Shown here: piece after piece, positions 2,769 through 25,213 of the stretch | Layout of the letters: every line of letters begins with the position of its first letter | How positions within the stretch are numbered: position 1 is the first letter of the stretch | Assembly (NCBI GenBank): GCA_938004865.1 | Contig: CALKVT010000188.1 | Location: 1 to 28,861 of the forward strand | From: an uncultured Myxococcales bacterium | GTDB taxonomy: Bacteria > Myxococcota_A > Polyangia > Haliangiales > Haliangiaceae | Length of the DNA: 28,861 nucleotides | Direction of reading: 5' to 3' | Made by a program: the position numbers and the translations under genes | The notes under the pieces: model-generated | Database searches by the model: none | Told to the model about the DNA's origin: nothing | Seen by the model: the letters and a program-made list of their open reading frames with translations, nothing else

Positions 2769-4253
2769 CTAGCGGCGGCCGACCGGAGGTGGCTCGTAGC
2801 GCTCGACCGGGCTCGCCGTCGGCGTGCCGCCGAGGACGACGATGGTGCCGTCGCACAGGCGCGCGGCGGCGTGACCGGCGCGCGCGCGGCCGATGCGATC
2901 GGTGGTGACCGCGTCGACCGAACCGTCGAGCGGATCGAGGTTGATGATGTAAGCCGAGAGGACGGGCTCGCCCTGCGGCGTCTCTTTGCCTCCGGCGACG
3001 AGGACGCGGCCGTCGGGGAGCACGGTGATGGTCGCGTCGAGGAGGCCGGCGCCGGGCGGTAACGCGCCGGCCTCGACGAAGCCGCCGTCGATGGTGAAGA
3101 GCTCCATGGTGCGCACGGGCTGGCCGGCGGCGTCGATGCCGCCGATGAAGAGCACGCTGCCGTCGGGCATGCGCACCGCCTCGTGGCGGGCGCGGGGGAT
3201 GTTCATCGTCGGCGCGAAGCCCTGCGCGAAGCTCTCGCGCAGCGGGCGCCACAGCTCGGCGGCGGCGATGAGCGCGCCGTCGCGATCGATGCCGCCGGCG
3301 ACCAGCACCGGCGCGCCGAGGTCGTCGGAGAGGCGGGTCGCGGTGGCGGCGCGGCGCGGGATGGCCATCGTCGCGGCGAGGTCGCGGATGGCGACGGTGG
3401 CGCCGTCGCCGGCGATCTCGACCGGCGTCGCGATCGGCTCCCCGCCGACCGGGCCGCCGCCGAAGACGACGATGCGGCCGTCGCTCAGCGTCACGGCGGT
3501 CGCCCCGGCGCGCGCGAGCCGGACGTCGTCGAGGCCCTCGACGCGGCCGACCAGCGAGGTGTCGAGCTCGAAGACCTCGAGCCGCGGCGACGCCTGGAGC
3601 GTCAGCGGATCGGTGCCGCCGAGCACGACCAGGCGGCCGTCGCCGAGCGACGCATAGGTCGCGTCGCGCCGCGACGTGAGGCTCGCGACCGTCTCGAGCA
3701 CGCCGCGGTGCGGGTCGAAGCGCTCGAGGCCGGGCACCGGCTGGTCGGTCTCGTCGTCGCCGCCGGCGAAGAGGACGCTGCCGTCGCGGTACGTGATGGC
3801 GCGGCCGCCGCGGCGCACGGCCGCCGGCGAGGCGTCGACGTCGCCCCACTTGACGGTGCGCGCGAACCACAGGTGCGGCGACGGCGGCGCCGCGTCGCCG
3901 AGCGAGAAGGCGCACGTGCGGCCATACGCGACATCGCCGCCGTTGAGGCGGCCGGTCATGTGCAGGACGAGCCCGTCGCCCTCGGGCACGTCGCGCAGCT
4001 CGATGGTGTCGCCGCGCGCGAACGACGCGCTCAGGAGGTCGGTCGACGAGCCCTCGCGCGCGAGCGTGAGCACGACCTCGTCGAGATCGGGGAACGCCGC
4101 CGCGTCGCTGCCCGGCGCGGGCCCGTCGATCACCGGCGCCATGACGATGTCGTCGGGCCCGCACGCACCGAGCGCGAGCAACGCGAGGACGCGCGGTCCG
4201 TTCGCCCTGAGCGAGCAGCACCGCCGCGAGTCGAAGGGCGCGTTCACTGCCAT
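2769..4253 (-). CDS. Kelch-repeat beta-propeller lipoprotein
   Basis: Kelch blades recur with the signature DG.(I/V).V.GG (DGRLVVLGG, DGRIVVFGGG, VLVAGGIDRDG, DGSVLFIGGID, DGRVLVAGGKE, DGTIVVLGGT). The N-terminus MAVNAPFDSRRCCSLRANGPRVLALLALGAC is a lipoprotein signal. Its ATG sits 8 nt upstream of the preceding gene's stop. The 854-aa ORF in the track is an Arg-rich upstream read-through artifact. Confidence 0.8.
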   Translation of the reverse strand: MAVNAPFDSRRCCSLRANGPRVLALLALGACGPDDIVMAPVIDGPAPGSDAAAFPDLDEVVLTLAREGSSTDLLSASFARGDTIELRDVPEGDGLVLHMTGRLNGGDVAYGRTCAFSLGDAAPPSPHLWFARTVKWGDVDASPAAVRRGGRAITYRDGSVLFAGGDDETDQPVPGLERFDPHRGVLETVASLTSRRDATYASLGDGRLVVLGGTDPLTLQASPRLEVFELDTSLVGRVEGLDDVRLARAGATAVTLSDGRIVVFGGGPVGGEPIATPVEIAGDGATVAIRDLAATMAIPRRAATATRLSDDLGAPVLVAGGIDRDGALIAAAELWRPLRESFAQGFAPTMNIPRARHEAVRMPDGSVLFIGGIDAAGQPVRTMELFTIDGGFVEAGALPPGAGLLDATITVLPDGRVLVAGGKETPQGEPVLSAYIINLDPLDGSVDAVTTDRIGRARAGHAAARLCDGTIVVLGGTPTASPVERYEPPPVGRR

Positions 4254-5293
4254 GGCGGCAACCCCGTCGGCCGGATGACGCGATCGCCGGGCCCGGTGTC
4301 GCGCGCGGCGATCGGGATCAGCACCGCGGCGGCGGCGACCGCCCCGCCGACCGCCCACACCCACCGCTTGCGGTACCAGGGCTCGCGCACGATGTCCGGC
4401 GGCGTCAGCATGCGCTCGACCGTCGCCGCGATCACCTCGCCGTCGGCGGTGACCAGCGCGCGCGCTCGCTCGCGGCCGTCGGCAGCGCGATGGCGGATGC
4501 GCGCGGCGCCGGCGAGGATCGTCACCTCGATGACCGTGGCCGCGCCCAGCGCGCGCGCCTGGATGAGCGCCTCGTCCTCGTCGGGCGGCGCGATCGGCGC
4601 CGGCGTCACCACGACCTCGACGGCGGTGCGGTCGAGCACGACGCGGCGGCCCCACGGCCGGTGCTCGCGGCAGGCGGCGTCGATCCAGTGCGCGCCGTGG
4701 GGCAGCTCGGCGCGGCCGTCCCCCGAGATGGCGCCGTCGATCGAGATCACGCAGCCGGCGGGCGCGCTCACGCGCAGCACGCCGCGCGGCGCCGACGCGA
4801 CCTCGTCGCGCGCGCGCTGGAGCTGCTCGATCGCGCGCGGCGGGAAGCGCGCCGGATCGAGGCGGCGCGACGGATCGATGCGCGCGGCGACGAGCAGGTC
4901 GTCCCATGCGCGCTCGGGCTCGCCGAGCTGGATGCGCGCCAGGCCGCGGTAGAGGAAGAGCTCGGCGAGGCGGGCGACGTCGAGGCCGGCGGCGCCGGTG
5001 CGGTCGAGCTCGGCCGCCGCCTCGTTGAGCAGCGCGAGCGACTCGTCGAAGCGAAGCTGATCGTAGGCCGTGATCGCCGCGACGATGCGCGACGCGTCGG
5101 CGGGTTTCGGAGCCGGCGGCGAGCGATCGACGAACGCCGCGCCCCGGGCCTCGGCCGCGGCGCGCGTGCGCGCGCGCAGCACCGCCGGCGCGTCGGGCGG
5201 CGCCCAGTAGAGGATCGCGTCGGCGGCCGGCGCCGCGGCGGCGTTCCCCGCGGACATCAGCACGACGACGGCGGCCAGGACGATGGCGCGCAA
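4244..5293 (-). CDS. Secreted protein with a TPR-like helical region, a PEGA-like beta-sandwich and a C-terminal TM anchor
   Basis: A probable TTG start gives the signal peptide (M)RAIVLAAVVVLMSAGNAAAAP; the start is uncertain, and an internal ATG (MSAGN) is the alternative. The PEGA-like segment is VLRVSAPAGCVISIDGAISGDGRAELPHGAHWIDAA. The C-terminal TM segment is WVWAVGGAVAAAAVLIPIAA. It overlaps the downstream Kelch gene by 10 nt, so the two form an operon. Confidence 0.6.
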   Translation of the reverse strand: MRAIVLAAVVVLMSAGNAAAAPAADAILYWAPPDAPAVLRARTRAAAEARGAAFVDRSPPAPKPADASRIVAAITAYDQLRFDESLALLNEAAAELDRTGAAGLDVARLAELFLYRGLARIQLGEPERAWDDLLVAARIDPSRRLDPARFPPRAIEQLQRARDEVASAPRGVLRVSAPAGCVISIDGAISGDGRAELPHGAHWIDAACREHRPWGRRVVLDRTAVEVVVTPAPIAPPDEDEALIQARALGAATVIEVTILAGAARIRHRAADGRERARALVTADGEVIAATVERMLTPPDIVREPWYRKRWVWAVGGAVAAAAVLIPIAARDTGPGDRVIRPTGLPPWQ

Positions 5294-5320
5294 CGCCCAT
5301 ATTGTCGGCCGCCCTCCGGA

Positions 5321-5334
5321 GGTGGTCAACCACC
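5321..5334. promoter_or_regulatory. Palindrome GGTGGT-ca-ACCACC in the 60-bp divergent promoter region between the kinase gene and the PEGA/Kelch operon
   Basis: The 6-bp arms are perfect and the spacer is 2 nt. A TATAGT -10-like hexamer lies 5 bp downstream and 13 nt before the kinase ATG. Confidence 0.25.
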
Positions 5335-5353
5335 GCGCTATAGTCGGGCGGCG

Positions 5354-7012
5354 ATGGCCGAAACCGTGCTGGGGCGCTACGAGCTGCTGCGGCTGCTCGG
5401 GCGAGGCGGCATGGCCGACGTCTACCTCGCGCGCCGGCGCGTCGCCGGGCTGGAGAAGCGGCTGGTCATCAAGCGGGTGCGGCCGCAGCAGGTCGGCGAC
5501 ACCACGTTCCTCGAGCTGTTCGTGCGCGAGGCGCGGCTGTCGATGACGCTCAACCACCAGAACATCGTCCCGGTCTTCGATTTCGGGCGGGTGGGCGACG
5601 CGGCCTTCCTGGCCATGGAGTTCGTCGAGGGCCGCGACCTGGGCGCGACCCTGCGCAAGGCCGAGGCGCCGGTGCCGCCGATGCTCGCGGCGTTCATCGC
5701 CGCCGAGTGCTGCCTCGCGCTCGAGCACGCGCACCAGCGGCTCGGGCCCGACGGCCAGCCGCTCGGCGTCGTGCACCGCGACGTCACCCCGCGCAACGTG
5801 CTCCTGTCGTGGGCCGGCGAGGTCAAGCTGACCGACTTCGGCGTCGCCGCGCTCGCCGGCGATCCCAGCGGCGAGGTGCGCGGCACGATCGCGTACATGG
5901 CGCCCGAGCAGGCGCGCTACGAGCCGACCGACGCGCGCGCCGACCTCTACGCGCTCGGCCTCGTGCTCTGGGAGATGCTGGCGGGCGAGCGCGTGCGGAA
6001 GGCCAGGGACAAGAGCGCGCTCCTCGAGCACACGCGGCTCGGCGTCCTGCCCCCGCCGCCCGAGGGACCGCCCGCGTTGCTCGAGGTGATCGCGCGCGCG
6101 ACCCAGTACGAGGTGGGTGAGCGCTACGCCGACGCGGCCGCGATGCACGCGGCCCTCGATCGCTACCTCGTCGAGGCGCGCGCGGCGGCACCGGGGCCGA
6201 CGCCGGCGCGGCAGCTCGCCGACTGGCTCGAGAGGGTGTGGGGCGACGAGGCCGGCAAGATCGAGGGCCAGCCGCTGGAGCCGGGGACGACGGCGCCGGC
6301 CGACGACCTGGATCCGGCGACGATGCGTTCGCTCGCCGAGACCGCCGGCGAGCTGCCGTCGGTGGTCACGCCGAACGCGACCGCGACCGCCGCCGGGGGA
6401 ACGGCCGCGGCGGCGGCAGCAGCCTCGGCCGCCGCCGCGGCGCCCATCGTGCCCGTCGCTCCGGCTCCTCCCGCCGCGTCACCGCCGCCGTCCGCGCGCC
6501 GCTGGCTGCCGGCGGCCGCGCTCGTCGCGGCGGCCGCGCTCGTCGCCGTCTACGTCGTCGCCACGCGTGCGCCGTCGAGTACGCGCGTGGCCATCGTCGA
6601 CGACGCGGCGGCGCCGGCCGTCGACGCGGCGGCGCCGGACGCGTCGAGCGCGGACGCCCCGTCCGACGACGGGTTCGCCGACGCCGCCGTCGTGAACCAC
6701 GACGCGACGGCGCCGGTCGACGCCCGCGTCGTCGTGACGCCGCCCGATGGACGCGGCGCGCCGGTCGACGCCGGCGCCGACGCCACGCCGCCGCCGGTCC
6801 TGCGCAAGGTCACGATCGGCGCGACGCCGTGGGCCCACTTCACCGTCGACGACGATCCGACGATCCGCGAGACGCCGGAGACGATCCAGCTCGCGCCCGG
6901 GCGGCACCGCATCCACTTCACCAACGATCAGCTCGGCGTGAGTCGCACGGTCACGATCGAGGTCCCGGCCGATCGCGACCTCAAGCACGTCGAGGCGCTG
7001 GCCGAGCCGTAG
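5354..7012 (+). CDS. Eukaryotic-like Ser/Thr protein kinase (Hanks type) with a single TM helix and an extracytoplasmic PEGA-like domain
   Basis: Glycine loop GRGGMADVY. VAIK-like LVIKRV. Catalytic loop HRDVTPRN. DFG motif. Activation loop TIAYMAPE. A TM helix (LPAAALVAAAALVAVYVVA) follows an Ala/Pro-rich linker. The C-terminal PEGA-like domain is VTIGATPWAHFTVDDD...GRHRIHFT...TVTIEV. Confidence 0.9.
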   Translation: MAETVLGRYELLRLLGRGGMADVYLARRRVAGLEKRLVIKRVRPQQVGDTTFLELFVREARLSMTLNHQNIVPVFDFGRVGDAAFLAMEFVEGRDLGATLRKAEAPVPPMLAAFIAAECCLALEHAHQRLGPDGQPLGVVHRDVTPRNVLLSWAGEVKLTDFGVAALAGDPSGEVRGTIAYMAPEQARYEPTDARADLYALGLVLWEMLAGERVRKARDKSALLEHTRLGVLPPPPEGPPALLEVIARATQYEVGERYADAAAMHAALDRYLVEARAAAPGPTPARQLADWLERVWGDEAGKIEGQPLEPGTTAPADDLDPATMRSLAETAGELPSVVTPNATATAAGGTAAAAAAASAAAAAPIVPVAPAPPAASPPPSARRWLPAAALVAAAALVAVYVVATRAPSSTRVAIVDDAAAPAVDAAAPDASSADAPSDDGFADAAVVNHDATAPVDARVVVTPPDGRGAPVDAGADATPPPVLRKVTIGATPWAHFTVDDDPTIRETPETIQLAPGRHRIHFTNDQLGVSRTVTIEVPADRDLKHVEALAEP

Positions 7013-8608: not shown

Positions 8609-9157
8609 TCAGGGCAGGTGGATGCGGCCGTTGGTCGCCGCCTGGTGGCAGCTGTTGCAGTCGCCGGTCATCGGCGTCGCCATCATCAGGCGCGTGTCGG
8701 GGCACCGGCTCGCCTTCACGCGCAGCGGCATGGCGAGCGCCTGCCCGGTGTAGAAGTTGCCGTTCGACGCCGTCACCAGCCGGACCGTCACGTCGTTGGC
8801 GTCGGTGACCGTGACGGTCGCGCCGGCGATCGGCGTGCCGCCCTGCGAGCTCGCGTAGAGGGTGCCGGCCACGGTCCAGCGCGGCGCCACGCCGCTGCCG
8901 TTGTGGCAGCCCAGACAGACGAGGCCGGCGTTGTGGTTGCCGCTGGGCAGCATCGACGACACCTCGTCGCACGATCCGTCGCCGCCGCCGCCCCCGCCGT
9001 TCCCGGCGGCGTCCGTCCCGCCGCCGCCGCCGGCCGCGTCGACGCCACCACCGCCGCCCGGATCGTCCGATCCCTCCACGGCGCAGGCGGCCACGAGCGG
9101 GCAGACGAAGGCGACGGCGAAGATCGATGTCAGGCGCATGGGCGAGGTGTTTCGCAA
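8609..9157 (-). CDS. Lipoprotein with two CxxCH heme-c binding motifs flanking a CarboxypepD_reg-like beta-sandwich (putative dihaem c-type cytochrome)
   Basis: The lipoprotein signal is MRLTSIFAVAFVCPLVAAC. A Gly-rich linker follows (GGGGGVDAAGGGGGTDAAGNGGGGGG). The heme motifs are CLGCH and CNSCH. Between them sits GTPIAGATVTVTDANDVTVRLVTASNGNFY, which resembles a carboxypeptidase regulatory-like domain. Confidence 0.6.
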   Translation of the reverse strand: MRNTSPMRLTSIFAVAFVCPLVAACAVEGSDDPGGGGGVDAAGGGGGTDAAGNGGGGGGDGSCDEVSSMLPSGNHNAGLVCLGCHNGSGVAPRWTVAGTLYASSQGGTPIAGATVTVTDANDVTVRLVTASNGNFYTGQALAMPLRVKASRCPDTRLMMATPMTGDCNSCHQAATNGRIHLP

Positions 9158-9288
9158 GCGTCGTGCCCCCTGGGAGTCCCAGGCGATTCCGGGTGATCCA
9201 CCCGCTCCCGCGCGCGGCTGTCGGTCGCCACCGACAGTCCCGTGGGGCAGGGGTCACCACGCCCCGGCCGGGAGCTAAGCTGCGACGC

Positions 9289-9957
9289 ATGGGGATGGCC
9301 CGCGATAGCTACCTGGTTGCCCGCGCCGTCGTGCGCGTGCTCGGCGACTCGACGATGACGCACGAGATCCACCGGGTCGAGGAGATCACGGGGCGCCCGG
9401 CGTACCGACGCCTGCTCGCCGAGCTGCGCGACGATCCCGACGGCCAGCGCCTCCTGCGCGAGCAGCCGGAGCTGTCGAGCGAGCTCGTCGACTACGACGC
9501 GCTCCGGCGGATGCCGGAGACGACGCTCGGCGGCGCCTACGTACGCCACCTCGACGGCAACGCCATCACCGCCGACTACCAGGCGGCGCGCACGCGCCAC
9601 GTCGACGATCCGGACATGGCGTACCTCATGCGCCGCTTCCGCCAGACCCACGACGTGTGGCACGCGCTCCTCGGGCTCGGCATCACCGGGCACGAGGAGG
9701 TCGTCATCCACGCCTTCTCGTGGGGACAGATGCGGCTGCCGGTCTCGGCGATGGTCGTCGCGTTCGGCTCGATGAAGCACATCGTCCTCGAGAAGCGCTG
9801 GGGCACGCTGCGCCACTCGCTACGCGAGGCGTACGAGGCCGGACGCGACGCCGCGCCGCTCATCAAGGTGGTGTGGGAGGACCTCTGGGCCGAGCCCATC
9901 GACCGTGTGCGCGCGCGCTACCACGTGCGCACGCTCGAACGCCGCTGGCTCGACTGA
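9289..9957 (+). CDS. Coq4 family protein (ubiquinone biosynthesis COQ4 homologue)
   Basis: The Coq4 zinc-ligand motif HDxxH-x11-E is present as HDVWHALLGLGITGHEE. The size is about 220 aa. ATG at 9289, and ATG at 9295 is an alternative start. Confidence 0.7.
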   Translation: MGMARDSYLVARAVVRVLGDSTMTHEIHRVEEITGRPAYRRLLAELRDDPDGQRLLREQPELSSELVDYDALRRMPETTLGGAYVRHLDGNAITADYQAARTRHVDDPDMAYLMRRFRQTHDVWHALLGLGITGHEEVVIHAFSWGQMRLPVSAMVVAFGSMKHIVLEKRWGTLRHSLREAYEAGRDAAPLIKVVWEDLWAEPIDRVRARYHVRTLERRWLD

Positions 9958-13407: not shown

Positions 13408-13415
13408 GAGGGATC

Positions 13416-16400
13416 ATGGCCAAGAAGAACGCCAAGAGCGCGAAGAGCGACTTCGAGACCGCCGCCGCCAACATCACGAGCGCACCGCATTCCACCGCGG
13501 CCTGGGACGAGATCGAGGAGCTCGCGCGCGAGCACGACAAGCCCGACGAGGTCATCACCCTCTACAACGAGATCCTGAAGAAGGGGCTCGACCCGCAGGT
13601 CGTCGAGATGATCGGCGACCGCGCCGGCGCCTTCTGTGACGAGTGGTTCGGCGACGAGCCCAAGGTCGCCGAGGGCATCCTGGGCAAGGTCCTCGAGCTG
13701 GCGCCGCAGTCGGAGTCGGCGCTGGGCCGGCTGTCGGTGCTCTACACCCAGAACGAGCGCTGGGCCGACCTCCTGCGGCTCTACGACCGCGCGCTCACCG
13801 CGGTGAAGGATCAGGGGCGGCGCATCAAGCTGCTCCGCGAGGCGGCGCAGATCGCCAAGGACGTCGCCAACCAGCCCGAGAAGGCGATCGGGTACCTGCA
13901 GCGCCTGCTCCCGCTCACCGCCGACGACGTGCAGCTCGGGCAGTCGCTGGAGCGCCTGCTCGAGCGCTACGAGCGCTGGGCCGATCTGATCGAGCTGTGG
14001 GAGGGCCGGCTCGATCGCCAGAGCAAGCTCGAGCGCGAGAAGAGCCGGGCGCGCATCTCGGCCTGCTACCTGGACAACCTGCAGGACTCGGCCAAGGCGC
14101 TGGCGGCGGTGCGCCCGCTCCTCGCCGTCGCCGACGATGACAGGGAAGCGACCGCGCTGCTCGAGCGCATCATCGAGGCCCAGCACACCCAGGAGAAGGA
14201 CCGCGAGGCCGCGCTCGACGTCCTGCGCGCGCACTACGACGCCACCAGCCGTCCGCGCGAGGTGATCCGCGTGCTCGAGCGCGTGATCGAGCTGTTCCCG
14301 GACTCGCGCAAGGCGCTGCGCGAGGAGGCCGGCGCGCGACTCGCCGAGCTCGACGACGACCGCGCCGCCATGGACCACTACGCCGAGCTCCTCGCGCTGT
14401 CGCCGGAGTCGTCGGTGACGCAGGAGAAGCTGCGCCAGCTCGCGCAGCGCTCGAACAACTTCGCGCGCTACGCCCAGGGCGTCGCCGCCGCGGCCGAGCA
14501 CGCGATCATGCCCGGGCGCAAGGTCGAGCTCCTCTCGGAGGCCGCGCGCACCAAGCTCGATCTGCTCGACGACGCCAACGGCGCGATCGAGCTCTACCAG
14601 CGCGCGCTCGAGCTGCCCGGTGCGGGCGCGAAGGAGCAGCTCCCGGTGTGCCGGCGGCTCTCCGAGCTGTACCTGCGCGTCGACCGGCCGCGCGAGCGGT
14701 TCGCCATCCTCGAGCGCCTGGCCGGGCTCGAGCCCGCCGACGCCACCCGCCGCGCCGTCATCGGCGAGGCCGCGCGCCTGGCGGAGACCCTGGGCGAGAC
14801 CGACAAGGCGCTCTCGCTGTGGCGGCAGCGCATCGAGCGCGATCCCGACGATCTCGCCGCGATCGACTCGTCGATCCTCCTGCTCGAGACGTCGCAGCGC
14901 TGGCCGGAGCTGGTCGCCGCGCTCGACATGCGCTCGCAGAAGAACGTGTCGACGGCGCAGAGGCGCACCGACCTCACGCGGATCGCGGTCGTGTACCGCG
15001 ACCACATCAAGGACGCCGAGAAGGCGATCGCCGCGTGGCAGCGGGTGCAGCAGGCGTTCGGCGACGACGCCGAGACGGTCGGCGCGCTGACCGAGCTGCT
15101 CTCCGAGGTCTCGCGCTGGAGCGAGCTCGCCGAGCTGCTCGAGCGGGCGAGCGGCAAGGACGTGGCGCGCACGACGCGGCGGCTCAACAAGCTCGGCGAG
15201 GCGCTGGGCACGCACCTCGGCGAGCCGGGGCGCGCGCTGACCGCGTATCGCGCGGCGCTCGCGATCGATCCGGTGAACGACGAGGCCCGCGCCGGCCTGC
15301 TCACGCTGCTCGATTCGCCGGCGCACCGCCGCGCCGCCGCCGACGCGCTCGCGGTGAGCTACCGCGAGAACCAGGACTGGGCCGGCTTCCTCAAGCTCCT
15401 CCCGTCGCGCCTCGCCGACGCGCCCGACGACCGCACCCGGCTCGCGCTGCTGCGCGAGGCCGCGTACATCCAGCTCAACAACACCGGCGATCCGGCCGGC
15501 GCGCTCGACAGCCTGGCGCGCGCGTTCCCGCTCGCGCCGCGCGACGGCGTGATGGAGGGACAGATCCTCGATCTCGCGCAGCAGACCGGCAAGCTGCCGG
15601 TGGCCGATCAGGCGCTCGCCGCGGCCATCGACGCGCTCGCCGAGGATCCGGCCGAGCAGTCGCGGCTGCGCCTGGTGCGCGCCGAGCTGCTCGAGAAGAA
15701 GATCGGCGACGAGGCCGGCGCCCTGGCCGAGTACCTGATCGTCTTCCGCCGCGATCACGCGAACACCACCGCCGCGACCGGCGTCGTGTGGCTGGCCCCC
15801 AGGAAGGGGCAGTGGGCCGACGCGGCGCAGGCGGTGCTCGGCTTCGCTGCCGCCAAGGAGCGGCTCGACGACGGGCTCTTCGGTCACTACGCCAAGGCCG
15901 GCGAGGAGGCGCTCGAGGCGGCGGTGACCGCGCTCGAGGAGGCCGCGCCCAAGGCCGGGCTCCCGCCCGCGGTCGCGGCGCAGGTGTGGTCGCTCATCGG
16001 CGTGTGGCAGCGCGATCGCCGCGGCGACAAGGCCGCCGCGGTCACCGCCTTCAACAAGTCGCTCACCGCCGGCGGTGATCGCGCGGACACCTTGCGCGCC
16101 GTCGCCGAGCTCTTGCGGCCCGGGGGGCCGAGCGCGTCGCTCCTCGACGTCCTGCGCCGGCTATCCGATGCCGATCCGCGTGATCTCGACGTGCTCGTCG
16201 AGGCCGCGGACACCGCGAGCCGTCAGGGGGATCGCGACGCCTCGGTCACGATCCTCGGCCAGGTGCTCGGCCGCGCCACCGGCGCGTGGCGCGGGTCGTC
16301 GTCGGTCCAGTCGTCGCGCCCACCGGAGGCGGTCGTGCGCTGGGCGATCGACGGGCTCGTCGATCTCCACCGCTCCGCCGGCCGGCCCCGCGTCGCCGTC

Positions 16401-19400
16401 GACCTGCTCGTCGAGTCGGCGCGCCTGCCGTTCGACCCGGAGACGCGGCGCGATCTGCGCATGCGCGCCGCCGCGATGGCGTCGAGCGAGCTGCACGACA
16501 ACGCCGCCGCGATCGACATGTACCGCGGCGTGCTCGCCGACAGCCCCGGCGATCTCGACATCATCGCGCGCCTCGGCGCGCTGCTCGAGACCGAGAAGCG
16601 CTACGCCGAGCTCCTCGGCCTGCGCCACACCCAGCTCGGCCTCGAGTCCGACCCGGCGCGCCGGCTCGAGCTCCGCCTCGACATCGCCCGCCTGGTCGGG
16701 GTCGTCGAGGAGACCGGCGGCCGCTACGAGTCGCTGATCGCCAACCTCGCCGATCAGCCCGGCCACGACGCGTCGATCGACGCGGCCCACGCCTTCCTCG
16801 GCGGACGCGGTCAGCACAAGGCGCTCGCCGACCTGCTCGAGGAGCAGGCCGCCAAGGTCGAGGGCGCCGGCGAGGCCGCGCGCGCGGCCAAGCTGTGGGC
16901 GCGGTTCGCCGCGGTCACCGAGAAGGAAACGCGCGAGACCGATCGCGCGATCATGGGCCACAAGCGCGTGGTCAAGCTCGCGCCGACCCAGGACTCGCTG
17001 CGGGCGCTCGCGCGCCTCCAGCTCGAGCGCAAGCAGCCGGCGCAGGCGGTGCCCTGGTTCGAGAGCCTGCTCTCGACGGTGCAGGGCGCCGAGCGGCTGG
17101 CCGTGCTCGACCAGCTCGCGCGCGCGCACATCGCGGCCGAGCAGGAGGACCGCGCGATCGCGACGATCGAGGCCGCGCTCGACGACCGCGAGCCCGCGCT
17201 CGACCTGCGCCTCCTCCTCGCCGACCTCTACCGCAAGGGCGAGCAGTGGGAGCCGCTGGCGCGGCACCTGACGCGCTCGCTGGCGCTGTTCGGCGACGAG
17301 CGCGGGCGCGAGCTCGCGCGCGAGGCCGCGTCGATCTACACCGACAAGCTCGACGCCCCGGCCAAGGCCATCCCCGCGCTGGAGAAGGCGCTCGCGCTCG
17401 ATCCGACCGACAAGGAGATGCGCGCGAACCTGGCGATCGGCCTGCGCGTCGCCGGCCGCCTGTCCGAGGCGCGCGCCATCCTCACCGAGCTCATCGAGGC
17501 CTTCGGTCGTCGCCGCGCGCCCGAGCGCGCGCAGCTCCACGTCGAGCTGGCCAAGGTCGCCCACGCCGAGGGCAAGAACGACGAGGCGCTCTCCGAGATG
17601 GAGGCGGCGTCCAAGATGGACGTCCACAACACGCGCATCCAGCGCGAGCTCGCCGAGCTGTGCCGCGCCGCCGGTCAGGTCGACAAGGCGGAGCGCACGT
17701 ACCGCGCGCTGCTCCTCGTCGTGCGCCGGCAGCCGCCGGGTGATGACGAGACCGCGGTCGGCCAGAGCGAGGTGCTCTTCGAGCTCTCGCGCCTCGCCGC
17801 CGGTCACGGCGAGACCAGCCAGGCCAAGGAGCTCCTGGAGAGCGCGATCGACGCCGCGGTGCAATCCGACGGCGAGGTCCGCCGCCTGCGCCGCAGCCTG
17901 ATCGCACACGGCGAGCCGGAGACCTTGCTCCGCGTGCTCGAGCTGCGGCTCGGCGCGACCAGCGAGGCGGCGAGCCAGGCGCGGCTCTACGGCGACATGG
18001 CCGACGTGCTCGACGGCTCGCTCGGGCGAACGAGCGACGCGCTCGACGCCGCGATCAAGGCGTTCAACCTGGCGCCGTCGCGTCTGGACCTGCTCGAGAA
18101 GGCGCGGCAGCTCGCCCGGAAGTCGGGCGGCACCAAGAAGTTCGTCGAGGCGGTCGAGGCGGTCGTCGAGCGGCTGCGCCGCAAGGACGATCCGCCGCTG
18201 GTCGCGTCGGTCCTCCTCAAGGCCGGCGAGGCGCTCGAGAACGACGCCGACGATCTGGCCGGTGCGGCGGCGATGTACCGCCGCGTCGAGATGCTCGGCG
18301 AGCGGCTGGCCGAGGCGTACTACGCGCAGGCCCGCGTCGCGGGCGCGCTCGGCGATGACGAGCAGCAGGCGCGGGCGCTCGACAACATGCTCCAGCTCGC
18401 CGGCGGCGCCGATGGCGATGCCTCTCCGGCGCAGGTCGACGCGCTCTACCGTCTCTCCGAGATCTTCATCGCCAACCCGGCGCGCCGCGCGCAGGGCATC
18501 GAGCTGATCGAGCGCGCCTTCGCGGCCGAGCCGCGCTGGGCTCAGGCCGGACGCGTCCTCCGCGGCGCGTCGAGCGCCGATCCGGGCGATGCGCGGGTGA
18601 TGGCGCTCTACGAGCGCGTCGCGCGCAACGGCGGCGACAACGAGCTCCTGCTCGACTTCCTCGAGAAGCGGGCGCAGCAGCCGGGCGCGACGTCGGCGCA
18701 GGTCCGCGAGGCCGTCGACCTCGCGGTCGAGACCGGTCAGGAGCAGCGCGCCGAGAGCCTGCTCCAGCGCGCGGTGCAGGCCGCGCGCGACTCCGCCGAC
18801 GGCGTCGGCGGGGCGGTGTGGGCGGTCCTCTCGCTCACCGACCGCCGGGTCGCGGCGGGCGATCTCGCGTCGGCGCGCGAGCTGGTCTACGAGATCATCG
18901 GTGTCGCCGAGCCCGCGGACATGGATCCGCTGATCGGGCGCGTGGCCGCGCGCGCCGCGGCGGACAAGGCGACGCAGCCGCTCGCCGCCGAGATGTACGA
19001 GCTCCTGCGCGAGCGCGCGCCCTCGGAGCGGACGGTGTGGGAGCCGCTGGTCGCGCTCTACCGCGACATGGGCGACGGCGACCGGCTGGCGAGCGTCATC
19101 TCGTCGACGCTGCCGACCTTGACCGATCCGCAGGAGCGCAACTCGCTCCGTCGCGCCCACGCCACGTACCTCATCGAGACGCTCGACCGTCCGCACGACG
19201 CCGCCGACGTCCTGCGCGACGCGCTGCAGGACGACCCCGACGATCTCGCGGCCGCCGGCGCGCTCGAGCGGACGCTGCGCGCGCTCGGCGACGACGACGG
19301 GCTCGCCGAGTTCCTGTGGGCGCGCTTCGACGACGCCGTCCGCCGCGGCAACCGCGAGAGCACGCTCGACGTCGCCGCGCGCCTCGGTCCGCTGGTCGAG

Positions 19401-21200
19401 TCGACCGGTGGTAACGCGGCGCGGGTGTATCGGGCCGCGCTCGAGATCGCTCCCGACGACCGCGAGCTGCTGCGCCGTGTCGTCAGCGGGATCACGCCCG
19501 AGGACGATCCGCGCGAGTCGGCGGCGCTCATGGAGCGCCTGCTCGCCGTCGAGACGCCCGAGGCGGCGCCGGCCCTGTGCTGGAGCCTGGCGTCGGCGTA
19601 CGAGCAGGCGGAGGACTGGGCCGGCGTGCAGCGCACGCTCGCCGCCGCGCACAAGGCGGCGCCCGGGGACCAGGCGATCCACGACCGGCTCGAGCAGTTC
19701 TACCGCGACAGCCAGCAGTGGAAGGAGCTGGCCGAGCTCATGACCAGCGACGCGGAGCGCGCGACCGACGCCGCCGTCGCGGTCGACCGGCTGCGCGAGG
19801 CGTCGGCGGTCTACACCGGCTTCCTCGGGCAGCCGCTGCTCGCCGCCGAGGCCCTGCGCGCGGCGCGGGCGCGTCAGCCCGAAGCGCCGGCCCTGTCGGC
19901 GGAGCTGGCGGCGGCCCTGGCCGCGGCCGGCGATCACCGCGGCGCCGTGACGTCGCTCGGCGAGGCCCTCGATCCGTGGTCCGGCGACAACGGCGAGAGC
20001 CAGCCGGCGCCGGTGCAGGGCGCCGCGCGGGTCGATCTCCTGCTCCTGCGCGCGAGCCTGCGCCAGCAGCTCGGCGAGGAGGACACGGCGGTCATCGATC
20101 TCGACGACGCGTACAAGCTCGACGGGCCGCGCGCGGCGGCCGCCCTCTCCGAGGGGCTCGAGCGCATGCGCGCGCGGGCCGAGGCCGCAGGGGACATGGC
20201 GAGCGAGCGCACCGCGACCTTGCGGCTCGCCCAGCTCCTCGGCGAGCACGGCGACCTCGAGCGGGCGCGCGATCTGCTCGTCATGTGGATCGAGCGGATG
20301 CCGAGCGATCCCGACCCGCTCTACATCCTGCGCGACATGGACGCCGGCATCGAGCACTGGGACGGCGTGATCGCGGCGTGCACGCGGCTCGCGTACATCG
20401 TCGAGGGCGAGGCGCAGGTGCAGGCGGCGCTCGACGTCGCCGACGCGTCGGCGCGCGCCGGCAAGCCCGGCGACGCGATCGGCGTGCTCGAGATGGTGCA
20501 CCAGGTGCAGCCGGGCGCGGAGACGATCCGCGTCAAGCTGCGCGAGCAATACGAGGCCGCGGGGGCGCACGGTCAGCTCGCCGCGATCCTCATGACCGAC
20601 GCCGAGCACGCGGCCGACGCCGACGCCAAGTTCGCCGCGTACAAGCGCGCCGCCGAGCTGTACCTGGCGGCGGGCGACGCGGCGGCGGCGTCGGTGCCGG
20701 CGGGCAAGGCGGCGGAGCTCGCGCCCGACGATCACCAGACCGCGATGCTGCACGTCGACATCCTCATCGGCTCCGGCCGCACGGAGGAGGCGGCCAGTGC
20801 GCTCGAGACGGCGATCGCGGCGCAGAAGAAGCGCACGCCCGAGCTCGCGACCATGCAGCAGCGCATGGGCCGGGTCGCCGGCATGCTCGGGGATCGCGAC
20901 GGTCAGCTCGGATGGCTGAAGAAGGCGTTCGACGTCGATCGCAAGAACGGCGAGATCGCCGCCGAGCTGGCGCAGCTCGCGACCGAGACCGGCGACTACG
21001 AGCTCGCGCTCAAGCCGCTGCGCGCGATCACGCTGATGGACAACCCGCTGCCGATCACGCGGCCGATGGCGCTCCTCTGGGAGGCCAAGATCGAGCACGC
21101 GCGCGGCAACCGCGCCAAGGCGGAGCTCTGGGCCAAGAAGGCGCTGCGCGAGGACCCTCAGTTCCACGAGGCGCAGCAGTTCCTGGACGAGCTGGCCTGA
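13416..21200 (+). CDS. Giant (2594 aa) all-alpha TPR-repeat protein with no signal peptide; probable cytoplasmic scaffold
   Basis: It is a single uninterrupted 7.8 kb ORF with strong GC3 bias and an SD (gaggga) 5 nt upstream of the ATG. TPR signature positions W4-L7-G8-Y11 recur throughout ([90 protein letters not shown]). Many A-x-x-Y/AL-x-L-D-P motifs are present. I see no catalytic motif. Confidence 0.85.
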
Positions 21201-21246
21201 GCGAGGCCTCCCCTACGGGAGGCCGAGTCGAAGGGCCAGCTCGTCC

Positions 21247-21282
21247 CCCGTGCCCGTGCCCGTGCCCGTGCCCGTGCCCGTG
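21247..21282. repeat. Hexanucleotide microsatellite (CCCGTG)6, intergenic
   Basis: Six perfect tandem CCCGTG copies are followed by gatct-gatct-gttct-gttcc short direct repeats. It lies 47 nt after the giant TPR gene stop and upstream of the PA14/P-domain lipoprotein gene. Confidence 0.9.
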
Positions 21283-21357
21283 CCCGATCTGATCTGTTCT
21301 GTTCCGGTCGTGAGCGGGCACACGCTCGCGAAACCCATCGTCCCGTGACGTCGGTTC

Positions 21358-21392
21358 GATCATTGTCATCCCGCCCCGCTGCGACAATCATC
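21358..21392. promoter_or_regulatory. Imperfect inverted repeat GATCATTGTC-N15-GACAATCATC ending 5 nt before the ATG of the PA14/P-domain lipoprotein gene
   Basis: Nine of ten positions are complementary. The 3' arm overlaps the expected RBS region, so it could be an operator or a hairpin that occludes the RBS. Confidence 0.25.
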
Positions 21393-21397
21393 GCAGG

Positions 21398-23206
21398 ATG
21401 CAGCGTCGCAGCGTGCTCTCCCTCGCGCTCGTCGCCGGTTGCTCGTTCACGCCGTCCGGATCCACCGGCGACGACGACGGCGACGGCGGCACCGACGACG
21501 CCGGCAACCGGACCGTGCTCCTGCGCGACGACTCCGCCGACGACTTCGCCGTCGTCGGCGCGGTGACCGACAACGCCGTGATCGAGCCGTGGGGCGCGGT
21601 CGCGCCGGCCGCCTTTCACGCCGGCGGGCTGCGCGCGCACGCCGCCAACACGCAGCGCTTCACCGAGCCCGACCTCGCGACGTGGACGATCGTCACCGGC
21701 GGGGGCGCCAACGGCACGGGGCTCTGGACCCGCCCGCTCGTCGGCGATCCGGTCGGCGTCGGGCTCGACTCGGGCGACACGTGGACCTACTGGGCCGAGG
21801 GCGAGGTCTGGCTCGACGCGGGGACGACGACCTTCCTCGTCGACGCCGACGACGCCGGCTTCCTCGAGATCGCCGCGCCGGGCGGCGAGTTCACCCGCGT
21901 CGTCAACGCGCGCTACGGCATCGCGTCGGGGATGTACACCGCGGCGACCGCCGGCTGGCACGCGATCCGCCTCGCCGTCGTCGAAGGGATCGGCGCATCG
22001 CGCTTCGACGTGCAGCTCTACGTCGGCGCCAGCGCGACGCCGGAGCCGCTCGCCGGGCCGCGGCTGCGCACGCGCGTCGACGCGCTGCGCGGCATGCTGC
22101 TCGCCGGCTGGGACAACTCGCTCTTCCAGGGCACGCCCGAGCACACGGTGTCCGACGCCGCGCTCGTCGACGCCCGCTTCCAGAACGGCGCGCCCGTCGG
22201 GGTCGGCATCGGCTCCTCCGATTTCTGGTCGCTCCGCTGGAGCGGCCAGTTCTACGTCACCACGCCCGGCACGTACTCGCTGCGCGTCGAGTCGGACGAC
22301 GGGCACCGCCTGTACGTCGGCGGCCAGCTCGTCACCGACGCGCTCTTCGGCGGTCCCGTCGATCGCACGGTCTCGGTCGCGCTCGTCGCGGGCTGGAACG
22401 ACCTCGTCCTCGACCTGAACGAGAACACCGGCGACGCCAGCGCGCGCCTGCGCGTGGTCGGCGGACCCGAGCCCGGCCTCGAGGCCGAGCTGCCGCTCGC
22501 GCGCCTGCGCCCGCTCGCGCCCCGCGACGAGCGCCTCGAGACCGTCGGCGACGGCAACGATCTCGGCATCCCCGACAACGACCCGAACGGCGTCACCCGC
22601 GCGGTACGCATCGCGGGGCTGCCGGGCGCCACCGTGGGGTCGGTCGACGTGATCATCGGCCTCAACCACCCGCGCATCGCCGATCTGCAGGTACGCCTCG
22701 TCCACCCCGGTGGCAACGAGGTGCTCCTGCGCAACAACTCGTCCGAGGGCGGCAGCGGCCCGCGCACGCTGCGCTTCACCACCGAGATGTTCGACGACAC
22801 GCCCGCCGCTGGCGAGTGGCGCGTGCGCGTGACCGACACCCAGAACGCGCAATCGGGGTCACTCACCGACGTGCAGCTCGCCGTGCACATGGCCAACGGC
22901 CCCGAGCAGGTCGCGACCACCGCGAGCTACACCTCCGACGTTCGCGACCTCGGCGAGGGCGTGGTCGCGCTCGACACGATCCGTCTCGGCGCGCGCGTGC
23001 CGGCGGGCGCCGCTGTCGCCGTGCGTCTCCGCGGCTGCGACGCACCGGAGGCTTGCGCCGGCGAGCCGTGGTCGGCGCCGCTCGCCGACGGCGACGCGCC
23101 CGGCCTGCCGCCGCGTCGCTACCTCCAGTACCGGCTCGAGCTCACCAGCGACGGCGCACGCGAGCCCGAGGTCGACTCCGTCGAGCTCGCGTATCGGCTG
23201 CCCTGA
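21398..23206 (+). CDS. Lipoprotein with PA14-like domains and a proprotein-convertase P-domain (no catalytic domain)
   Basis: The lipoprotein signal is MQRRSVLSLALVAGCS. One PA14-like segment is FWSLRWSGQFYVTTPGTYSLRVESDDGHRLYVGGQLVTD. A second is WTYWAEGEVWLDAGTTTFLVDADDAGFLEI. The P-domain-like region is VDVIIGLNHPRIADLQVRLVHPGGNEVLLRNNSSEGG...FDDTPAAGEWRVRVTDTQNAQSGSLTDVQLAV. Confidence 0.75.
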   Translation: MQRRSVLSLALVAGCSFTPSGSTGDDDGDGGTDDAGNRTVLLRDDSADDFAVVGAVTDNAVIEPWGAVAPAAFHAGGLRAHAANTQRFTEPDLATWTIVTGGGANGTGLWTRPLVGDPVGVGLDSGDTWTYWAEGEVWLDAGTTTFLVDADDAGFLEIAAPGGEFTRVVNARYGIASGMYTAATAGWHAIRLAVVEGIGASRFDVQLYVGASATPEPLAGPRLRTRVDALRGMLLAGWDNSLFQGTPEHTVSDAALVDARFQNGAPVGVGIGSSDFWSLRWSGQFYVTTPGTYSLRVESDDGHRLYVGGQLVTDALFGGPVDRTVSVALVAGWNDLVLDLNENTGDASARLRVVGGPEPGLEAELPLARLRPLAPRDERLETVGDGNDLGIPDNDPNGVTRAVRIAGLPGATVGSVDVIIGLNHPRIADLQVRLVHPGGNEVLLRNNSSEGGSGPRTLRFTTEMFDDTPAAGEWRVRVTDTQNAQSGSLTDVQLAVHMANGPEQVATTASYTSDVRDLGEGVVALDTIRLGARVPAGAAVAVRLRGCDAPEACAGEPWSAPLADGDAPGLPPRRYLQYRLELTSDGAREPEVDSVELAYRLP

Positions 23207-23238: not shown

Positions 23239-23400
23239 TTCGCTGTCGACCAGGAGTTGTGCCGGGAGTATCCGGATTTCGTGGTCGTAGGGAGGTGAAA
23301 CTACCGGAATCGCACGAAGGTTCACCTCGGCACGATCGCTGCAAAAGACGTGGTGGAGATCACCAACTTTGCAGCGCGTCAAACGCGCGGAGGAGAGCCC

Positions 23401-24171
23401 ATGTCGTTCCTGCGCTCCGGCCTGTGTCTCGGATTCCTGCTGACGGCGTGTGCGGCGGAGGACGAGAGGGCAGGAGATGGGCCGCTGCGGATCACCGAGC
23501 TCGACGAGCGGACGATCGCGGGCTCGTTCGAGCACGGGACCTCCGTGGTGTCGTTCGAGAGCTGGTCGACCGATCAGCGGATCGCGCACCTCCGCATCGA
23601 CGTCGACGGGGCGACGATCGAGGCGACGTTCGACAGCGCCGGCGTCCTGACCGAGGACGGCAAGCTGAACGCCGTGTACGCCGAGGACAAGGCCGCGCTC
23701 GTCGCGCTCCGCGACGCCGTGCAGACGGAGCACCCCGAGGTCGTCGGTTCGCTCCAGGGCATGTTCCTCACCCGGCACGCCGAGTGGATCGCCGAGGCGC
23801 CCGAGGGCTACACGTTCGGCCTGCGCATGGTCGACGTGCGCGACCGGGTCGAGGACCGCACGACCTGGGACGATGACAAGGACACGACGTGCCTGTGGCC
23901 CGGCCGCTGGTACCGCGCGTACTACGACTACGGCAACAACGGCCAGCAGTGGTACTGGGATCGCCAGGCGAACTCGGGGAGCTGCCTCGGTCGCTGCGGC
24001 GCCGGCTGCAACTGGTTCGACGACGACATCATGCTCGACTGCTTCGAGCACGACACCTGCCTCGATCACTTCGGTGGCAGCTCGCTCGGCGGGAACCCGA
24101 ACTGCGGCGACGAGTACGACCACGCGGTGGCCGAGTACATCGTGACCTACGCCGCGTGGTGTCCGTACTGA
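23401..24171 (+). CDS. Lipoprotein with a Cys-rich C-terminal domain (unknown function)
   Basis: ATG start with the strong SD ggaggag. The signal/lipobox is MSFLRSGLCLGFLLTAC. The C-terminal third has about 10 Cys (CLWPGRWY...SGSCLGRCGAGCNWFDDDIMLDCFEHDTCLDHF...NPNCGDEY...AAWCPY). Confidence 0.6.
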   Translation: MSFLRSGLCLGFLLTACAAEDERAGDGPLRITELDERTIAGSFEHGTSVVSFESWSTDQRIAHLRIDVDGATIEATFDSAGVLTEDGKLNAVYAEDKAALVALRDAVQTEHPEVVGSLQGMFLTRHAEWIAEAPEGYTFGLRMVDVRDRVEDRTTWDDDKDTTCLWPGRWYRAYYDYGNNGQQWYWDRQANSGSCLGRCGAGCNWFDDDIMLDCFEHDTCLDHFGGSSLGGNPNCGDEYDHAVAEYIVTYAAWCPY

Positions 24172-24178
24172 TCGCGCG

Positions 24179-25213
24179 GTGAGCCGCTCGCGGCCGATCA
24201 TCGGTGGTGTGCCGGCGCCGGAGGACGATGCCGTCGTCGCGGTCCTGGCGCGCCGCACCCTCTGCGACGGGCCCGAGCAGGTGATCTGCTCGGGCACGCT
24301 CGTCGGTCCGCGCGCCGTGCTCACCGCCGCGCACTGCCTCGGCGGGCGCGAGCCGGACGAGCTCGAGGTGCTGATCGGCGACACGGCGAGCGCGCCGGCC
24401 ACCGTGCTCGCCGTCTGGGGCGCCGCCGTCCACCCCGGCTACGACGCAGGCGCTCCGGCCGAGACCTCGCCCGATCTGATGGTGCTCTTCCTCGAGGGCG
24501 ACGCTGGCGTGACGCCCGCCGTGCCGGCCGACGTCGCGGCCGCCGAGCTCGTCACCGGCGCGCAGGTGCAGCTCGTCGGGTTCGGCGCGACGACGATCGG
24601 CGGTGACCTCGGCGTCCGCGTCTCCGGGCGCGCGACCGTCGACGTCGTCGGCGGGGTCTCGTTCTCGACCGGCGCGAGCGCGGTGCCGTGCGGCGGCGAC
24701 TCGGGTGGCGCGGCGCTGCTCGAGACCGCGGCCGGGCCACGCCTGATCGGCGTGATCAAGGGCAGCGGCGCGGGCTGCGCGGACCAGGGGCTCGTGGTTC
24801 GCGTCGACGCGGCGTACGACACGTTCCTGGCGCCGGCGCTGGCGGCGGCGCCTCCACCGCCGGAGCGACCGCCGTTCGATCCGTCCGTCGCGTACTGCGC
24901 GGAGCCGTGCGGCGAGCACGCCGACTGTCCGCTCGGCATGCTCTGCCTGCCGGGTGCGGACGGCGCGCACTGCGGCTACCGCGAGGCTCGCACCGTCGCG
25001 GTCGGCGCCACGTGCGATGGCGCGAGCACGTCCTGCGTCCCCGTCGGTCAGGGGCTCGCGCGCGAATGCCGCGAGCTGCTCGCGTCGTGCCCCGCGCCGC
25101 CCGCGACCGGTGGCTGTGGTGCGGCGCCCGGCGGTGAAGCCGGTTTGGCGGCGCTGATCGCGGTCGCGCTGATGCGCCGCGCGCGGCGGCCTGCTGCTAC
25201 CTTCGCGCGATGA
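24179..25213 (+). CDS. Trypsin-like (S1 family) serine protease with a Cys-rich linker and a MYXO-CTERM-like C-terminal sorting signal; N-terminus anomalous (no signal peptide)
   Basis: IIGG lies near the N-terminus. The catalytic triad motifs are TAAHC (His), DLMVLFL (Asp) and GDSGG (Ser). The C-terminus GGCGAAPGGEAGLAALIAVALMRRARRP matches the MYXO-CTERM pattern of a Cys, a hydrophobic helix and an Arg cluster. The GTG start has no SD and sits only 7 nt after the upstream stop. Confidence 0.8.
   Translation: MSRSRPIIGGVPAPEDDAVVAVLARRTLCDGPEQVICSGTLVGPRAVLTAAHCLGGREPDELEVLIGDTASAPATVLAVWGAAVHPGYDAGAPAETSPDLMVLFLEGDAGVTPAVPADVAAAELVTGAQVQLVGFGATTIGGDLGVRVSGRATVDVVGGVSFSTGASAVPCGGDSGGAALLETAAGPRLIGVIKGSGAGCADQGLVVRVDAAYDTFLAPALAAAPPPPERPPFDPSVAYCAEPCGEHADCPLGMLCLPGADGAHCGYREARTVAVGATCDGASTSCVPVGQGLARECRELLASCPAPPATGGCGAAPGGEAGLAALIAVALMRRARRPAATFAR

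Follow-up and report, generated by a model that had tools for sequence, protein, structure and literature searches.

A 2594-residue protein of TPR-like repeats conserved across Polyangia-type myxobacteria, a candidate cytoplasmic scaffold

The window analysed here is a stretch of 28,861 nucleotides (contig CALKVT010000188.1, forward strand) from an uncultured Myxococcales bacterium of the Haliangiaceae, and the gene of interest is a plus-strand open reading frame (ORF) within it that encodes a protein of 2594 amino acids (aa) with similarity to tetratricopeptide repeats (TPRs; Table 1). The frame is single and uninterrupted over 7.8 kb, as a preliminary description of this DNA had stated. Its ATG is the earliest start codon in the open frame after the preceding stop, and relatives, P0007 (MAKSDFAT) among them, have an N-terminus that matches its own (MAK..SDFET). 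Ala, Leu, Arg, Glu, and Asp are abundant in the product, which has 32 Trp and 6 Cys, with no metal-binding cluster among the Cys. No hydrophobic segment able to serve as a signal peptide or membrane helix is present (maximum KD19 hydropathy of 1.0), consistent with the N-terminus and with the earlier statement that a signal peptide is missing. The G+C content of the whole window is 73%, and long ORFs consequently occur in many frames; those on the antisense strand, for example 16161-21167 (minus strand), are shadow ORFs. Since spurious long ORFs are common at this composition (one antisense example is 1668 aa long), the gene itself might be a chance ORF, or else a decaying repeat gene, but we regard this as a negligible prospect. 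The G+C fractions at codon positions 1, 2, and 3 of ORF 13416-21200 are 0.78, 0.48, and 0.96, with position 1 properly exceeding position 2, a pattern typical for genuine genes in DNA of 73% G+C. Thousands of full-length homologues, down to 25% identity and almost free of indels, further refute the idea of a pseudogene.

The 2594-aa protein has significant Pfam matches only to TPR-type families, namely TPR_19 (91 bits; cutoff of 25), TPR_14 (59.1; 23.5), TPR_7 (32.9; 27.9), and TPR_8 (32.1; 25.7). Matches to the TT21 ARM/TPR families lie near threshold here (27.3 vs 27.8 bits) and similarly in many relatives. When the protein was divided into ten tiles of 300 aa, TPR matches were obtained in nine, reaching the C-terminal residues, and aa 1561-1860 gave no notable match. 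A sequence search of solved structures returned designed TPR proteins only, and no equivalog cutoff was approached in NCBIfam. AlphaFold2 models of aa 1-1200 and aa 1395-2594, each built from 17-sequence alignments, have a mean predicted local distance difference test (pLDDT) score of 88 and 85, respectively, and contain 67 and 66 helices (133 over 2400 residues) and nothing else. The helices average about 14 aa, and the hairpin period is 36 +/- 4 aa. The segment between the two models (aa 1201-1394) gives the best canonical TPR matches in Pfam and NCBIfam. The protein thus belongs to the TPR/TPR-like alpha-solenoid superfamily, and the models predict a helix-turn-helix solenoid of about 72 TPR-like hairpins. 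Pfam, the tiling, and the models all bear out the preliminary view of a protein made essentially only of TPR-like repeats and devoid of catalytic motifs; neither Pfam, NCBIfam, nor either model, both helical hairpins throughout, revealed an embedded non-TPR domain, and no Pfam or NCBIfam family claimed the protein as a well-characterised member.

The repeats are degenerate, and most of them deviate from the classical W4-L7-G8-Y11 signature. A W-x-x-L-(G)-x-x-Y motif had been said to recur every ~35-70 residues along the protein; this has to be withdrawn, as W..L...Y occurs twice (aa 116 and 1875) and W..LG..Y never in a protein with 32 Trp in total. A looser version of the signature is found 11 times, compared with 6.3 +/- 2.4 times in shuffled sequences. 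Self-BLAST detected no discrete internal modules. A family profile of aa 20-715 aligns with the remaining protein in many registers (probability 99.9%), which is register-shifted, generic repeat similarity only, and the idea of discrete internal modules was rejected. The best Foldseek matches are Ski3/TTC37, IFT139/TTC21B, Ctr9, and TTC7 (E 2e-17 to 5e-10), uninterrupted TPR superhelices that hold multi-protein complexes together. However, these eukaryotic proteins are about half the size and match with 10-14% identity and TM-scores of ~0.1-0.2. The similarity is one of fold class only, and nothing indicates specific common ancestry.

Proteins of this kind form a very large uncharacterised family. 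A word-index protein search returned 1847 clusters at E<1e-10, of which the best 120 are 2526-2649 aa long, mostly labelled Kofleriaceae, and share 60-88% identity with the query over 97-100% of its length (99-100% in all except one). In a scan with one genome per species, 120 relatives were found and 80 of these kept, nearly all labelled as myxobacterial or unresolved delta-/proteobacterial metagenome-assembled genomes (MAGs; Kofleriaceae, Haliangiales, and Myxococcales) and one as Acidobacteriota. When 50%-identity representatives were searched exhaustively by HMMER with aa 1500-2594, 427 of them matched at E<1e-30, and a balanced profile of 22 family sequences brought the family to at least 2147 clusters at the same threshold. 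Organisms named by the latter include Haliangium sp., Nannocystaceae bacterium ST9, Plesiocystis pacifica, Enhygromyxa salina, and Sandaracinaceae. Every named member of the family is a Polyangia-type myxobacterium (Kofleriaceae, Haliangium, Nannocystaceae, Plesiocystis, Enhygromyxa, Sandaracinaceae, and, for a long subclass described below, Pendulispora). The listed representatives of 2450-2700 aa have a median length of 2594 aa (interquartile range 2578-2610), also at 28-35% identity. The family therefore appears, from these searches, to be confined to Polyangia-type Myxococcota and fixed in length near 2594 aa. The earlier remark that such proteins are rare holds for bacteria in general but not for this family, with more than 2000 sequence clusters distributed across Polyangia-type myxobacteria.

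The G+C content of the host loci ranges from 38% to 76%. Low-G+C Myxococcota or 'Deltaproteobacteria' MAGs encode full-length members as well (2611 aa in L086, 38% G+C; 2583 aa in L085, 51% G+C), so that the family extends well beyond high-G+C soil myxobacteria. Annotations of the members go no further than 'tetratricopeptide repeat protein' or 'hypothetical protein', save for a few automatic JGI labels of 'YciM' or 'PilF'. These labels were rejected, as NCBIfam scores give them no support.

Conservation is spread along the whole protein. Representatives of about 20 deep clades (101 sequences, each 25-54% identical to the window protein) were aligned; 92% of the window-protein residues fall in columns with <5% gaps, and only aa 818-892, 1661-1669, and 2189-2200 are prone to indels. 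Three peaks of family-wide conservation stand out, at aa 60-200, aa 1363-1375, and the final 100 residues, with the highest values at aa 101-200 (0.63 and 0.59 in two 50-aa bins). In the central basic motif, residues G1364, R1365, R1366, R1367, R1371, A1372, and H1375 are each at least 90% conserved over deep clades. Every hairpin is conserved in position, and the individual hairpins are under purifying selection across very deep divergence. So few indels across 2594 residues are unusual in a repeat protein, which points to strong constraint on its geometry.

Table 1 Features of the TPR-like gene, its product, and the downstream spacer (positions in the window)
Feature	Position	Strand	Remarks
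Shine-Dalgarno-like GAGGGA	13408..13413	+	Ends 3 nt before the ATG at 13416, with two bases between
Intact ORF for the all-TPR-like solenoid protein	13416..21200	+	Stop codon included; 2594 aa, 282 kDa, pI 5.1
N-terminal module, unit duplicated in the ~4000-aa variant	13503..15545	+	aa ~30-710
Most conserved N-terminal block, RAxxFxEEWF ... ERWxxLLxLYDRxL ... SLERLLER	13593..14015	+	aa 60-200
Variable loop region, indel-prone	15867..16091	+	aa 818-892
Canonical TPR core, strongest Pfam/NCBIfam TPR matches	16998..17855	+	aa 1195-1480; TPR_19 1383-1435; MamA-like 1195-1357; TPR_12 1408-1480
Near-invariant basic motif FGRRRxPERAxxH, candidate docking site	17502..17540	+	aa 1363-1375
Variable low-confidence loop	19980..20015	+	aa 2189-2200; gaps >10%; pLDDT <50 at model residues 796-801
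C-terminal block, almost invariant within Kofleriaceae and conserved family-wide	20823..21197	+	aa 2470-2594
GC-rich hairpin GGCCUCCC-CUAC-GGGAGGCC, terminator-like, without U tract	21205..21224	+	Begins 5 nt past the stop; dG -25.8 kcal/mol, z -2.88
Perfect hexanucleotide repeat (CCCGTG) x 6.7 in the spacer between the TPR and PA14 genes	21247-21286		
Promoter-like site before the PA14/P-domain lipoprotein gene	21363..21391	+	Gene start at 21398

A long subclass of 4006-4061 aa is present in Polyangiales and includes WP_394844024.1 of Pendulispora brunnea, whose last 2596 residues are collinear with the window protein at 35% identity. The additional 1430 aa at the N-terminus consist of two more diverged copies of the N-terminal body module (aa ~30-710). 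In P0197 (4033 aa), for example, residues 47-746 align with aa 30-711 (E 3e-22) and residues 480-1126 with aa 81-710 (E 1e-12). A search with the P0197 extension returned only Polyangiales-type sequences, from an index that seems to omit very long proteins, P0197 included. The extension is represented at L084 10001-14290 (Pendulispora brunnea) and in L087, L090, and L091, and five sublineages have it in common (~44-49% identity). In two of these sublineages, a convergent DnaJ-Hsp70 pair lies just downstream (L090 22862-25357 and L091 13709-16260), an arrangement that no other clade showed. Hsp70 is a classical partner of TPR domains.

The gene is not accompanied by a conserved partner. In 12 independent contexts it stands alone, with an upstream spacer of 120-300 bp and unrelated neighbours. 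De novo clustering of flanking ORFs from 82 related loci recovered synteny at the clade level only, with an enoyl-CoA hydratase and a DAGK-like gene downstream and an outer-membrane barrel-like gene, a thioredoxin, a rhomboid, and a short-chain dehydrogenase upstream, none of which is retained in deeper clades. The gene is most likely a single-gene transcription unit. In the window, its upstream neighbour is a divergent RluA-type pseudouridine synthase, and it is followed by genes for a PA14/P-domain lipoprotein, a small lipoprotein, a trypsin-domain ORF, and an enoyl-CoA hydratase. The hairpin, hexanucleotide repeat, and promoter-like site in the spacer (Table 1) set the downstream genes apart, and the promoter-like site argues that these form a separate transcription unit. 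The hexanucleotide tract, just upstream of the promoter-like site of the next gene, is possibly slippage-prone. Among 83 related loci, the small lipoprotein and trypsin genes are found in L061 only and the PA14 gene in L061 and L054 only, so that sharing is limited to the closest relatives. The enoyl-CoA hydratase is near the TPR gene in 58 of the 83, in some starting ~70-100 bp past its stop codon, and lies 4 kb downstream in the window. The hydratase is the ancestral neighbour, and the lipoprotein/protease group, given its narrow occurrence, is a local insertion. The preliminary description had placed the TPR gene first in a plus-strand cluster ending with surface lipoproteins and a secreted protease. 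A functional operon of this kind was rejected on the basis of synteny, the hairpin, and the promoter signals, and the lone-gene contexts contradict it as well.

Several other features of the window were recorded. A 273-aa lipoprotein-like ORF with an LLTAC lipobox (23350-24171) is followed after 8 nt, in another frame, by the trypsin-domain ORF (24179-25213), which lacks a signal peptide and starts almost at the mature N-terminus (IIGG). The two could be a split or frameshifted secreted protease, and the pair is also present in L061. A Coq4-family protein (PF05019, E 8e-47) is encoded at 9127-9957 and is conserved as a neighbour of the TPR gene in L052, L054, and L070 only; Coq4 is best known from eukaryotic ubiquinone biosynthesis. 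Further upstream, a Kelch-repeat ORF (2769-5333, minus strand) overlaps a Ser/Thr protein kinase ORF (4490-7012, plus strand) by ~850 bp, and an RHS-repeat protein fragment (53-1375) enters from the left edge of the window.

In a Kofleriaceae clade at 60% identity (42 loci), a barrel-like gene of ~864-904 aa with weak matches to TonB-dependent receptors is located directly upstream on the same strand (for example, L001 7157-9751 and L024 7160-9871). It is absent from the window and the closest relatives, where the divergent pseudouridine synthase is found instead. The idea that the 864-aa protein is the N-terminal extension of the 4000-aa variant, split off as a separate gene, was rejected because the two have no similarity. 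The adjacency of an outer-membrane barrel, together with partial NCBIfam matches to PrsT, PilW, BcsC, LapB, and PgaA and the 'YciM' or 'PilF' labels on some relatives, would fit an envelope TPR protein of secretion or polysaccharide export (PrsT, BcsC, PgaA, PilW/PilF, or LapB type) that partners the lipoproteins and protease or the upstream barrel. We consider such a role very improbable. These proteins and MamA share generic TPR repeats with the window protein, but they are 200-1200 aa long and carry signal peptides, lipoboxes, anchors, beta-barrels, or rubredoxin. The window protein has neither signal peptide, lipobox, transmembrane segment, nor beta-barrel, and the barrel, lipoprotein, and protease genes are conserved in narrow clades only. 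The NCBIfam matches also fall far below curated cutoffs. PrsT (TIGR02917) was rejected at 96.6 vs 312.2 bits, BcsC and PgaA at 22.2 vs 858 and 16.5 vs 366 bits, with no strand-rich region in the models, and LapB/YciM at 21.9 vs 474 bits. LapB/YciM, a protein of ~390 aa, has its own N-terminal membrane anchor, about 9 TPRs, and a C-terminal rubredoxin; the window protein has neither a transmembrane segment nor a metal-binding Cys cluster.

The protein is probably a cytoplasmic multivalent scaffold, a role that the preliminary description had already raised and that follows naturally from an intact, purely TPR-like protein free of catalytic and secretion signals. A 282 kDa solenoid would serve as a long docking platform for many partners, each stretch having its own partner or structural role. 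Partners may dock at the conserved patches, namely aa 60-200, the FGRRRxPER loop at aa 1363-1375, and aa 2495-2594. The protein would then be a scaffold or ruler of fixed geometry, not an expandable repeat array, and the importance of geometry may be the reason why indels are avoided.

The leading candidate for the assembly organised is the Agl-Glt gliding focal-adhesion machine, in which the protein would be the Polyangia counterpart of GltI/AgmK (MXAN_4863) of Myxococcus xanthus. GltI is a cytosolic TPR protein of 3822 aa that is required for gliding and is found at focal adhesions (PMC4508894); it has been modelled as binding several GltG FHA domains and proposed to be a multivalent cytoplasmic scaffold (PMC4508894, PMC11761067). 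Both proteins are giant, purely helical, and of TPR type, have no signal peptide, and are confined to myxobacteria; like GltI, the window protein is a giant cytosolic all-TPR myxobacterial protein. The ~4000-aa variant (4006-4061 aa) is also near GltI homologues in size (3822-4132 aa; PMC3169522). Luciano et al. traced gltI back to the common ancestor of the whole Myxococcales, which would include Plesiocystis, Haliangium, and Sorangium, and their supplementary table of clustered homologues contains gltI in Cystobacterineae only, at 4074-4104 aa (PMC3169522). The family described here is an obvious candidate for the gltI relatives of other suborders, with GltI compared by its published description.

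Several observations weigh against this assignment. In Cystobacterineae, gltI belongs to the G1 glt cluster (MXAN_4870-62) and is followed by the locus tag of gltJ (PMC3169522), and linkage is seen in Myxococcus, Stigmatella, and Anaeromyxobacter; in contrast, the window gene and its relatives never adjoin gltJ, gltH, or gltG, no glt or agl neighbours were found in the 12 independent contexts, and the window contains no FHA-TonB, zinc-ribbon, or Glt-type neighbours. No Myxococcia- or AgmK-named sequence is among the matches listed in the word-index, HMMER, and balanced-profile searches. The word-index search seems to omit very long proteins and returned neither P0197 itself nor any other full-length ~4000-aa member, so that missing GltI-sized matches there are not evidence of absence. 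No Cystobacterineae were identifiable among the best 150 of the 427 representatives of the HMMER search. The window protein is 2594 aa long compared with 3822 aa for GltI, and the TPR_2 matches of GltI lie ~910-1020 aa from its C-terminus (PMC3169522, Table 1), whereas the canonical TPR core is ~1150-1290 aa from the end here, an offset that would be unusual for an indel-poor family. GltI is also described as having a large non-TPR helical C-terminal domain (PMC11761067), whereas TPR matches reach the last residues of the window protein. The missing glt linkage and Myxococcia names, the position of the TPRs, and the C-terminal domain of GltI argue against simple orthology. A specific role in the Agl-Glt machine, drawn by analogy, is accordingly a tentative proposal that we hold to be somewhat doubtful. 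The broader proposal of a single-gene cytoplasmic solenoid acting as a multivalent docking platform, with the gliding machine as its leading candidate assembly, seems to us evenly balanced.

The same observations leave room for a scaffold of another process, such as proteostasis, Ser/Thr-kinase signalling, or organisation of the cell pole or cytoskeleton, in which the protein would be a Polyangia-specific housekeeping hub that resembles GltI in TPR fold only. This is a real possibility, short of favoured, and about as likely as a role in gliding. Besides the missing glt linkage and AgmK-named match, it is consistent with a stand-alone gene among housekeeping-type neighbours in each lineage examined, with the DnaJ-Hsp70 pair downstream of the 4000-aa variant in two lineages, and with the presence, in several contexts, of Ser/Thr kinase, PP2C, or ABC1 genes no more than 10 kb away. 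However, myxobacterial genomes have hundreds of Ser/Thr kinases, so that kinase proximity is roughly a chance expectation; the Hsp70 synteny is limited to one subclade, and none of these observations points directly to any particular process.

A further reading, which we rate as rather unlikely, is that the family is a previously unrecognised, near-universal structural component of Polyangia-type myxobacteria, a fixed-length 2594-aa 'ruler' or cytoskeleton-like scaffold that is either the ancestral core that gave rise to GltI or an independent organiser of some other large assembly. Each of the 72 hairpins would then have been held since the divergence of Haliangiales, Nannocystales, and Polyangiales, in genomes of 38% to 76% G+C. 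If so, the two extra 700-aa modules of the Polyangiales variant would show that whole modules are duplicated to tune how many docking sites there are.

In eukaryotes, giant all-TPR proteins are well known for organising molecular machines, and GltI of Myxococcus is, to our knowledge, the sole studied bacterial example. The protein described here is uncharacterised, although ordinary in kind, as giant TPR scaffolds are already known. Its family delimits a separate, very large, and rigid group in the other main myxobacterial branch and offers a well-defined target. As the counterpart of GltI, it would provide structural and binding studies with a shorter gliding scaffold and a residue-level map of its conservation; otherwise, it would mark an unknown large cytoplasmic assembly common to the Polyangia.

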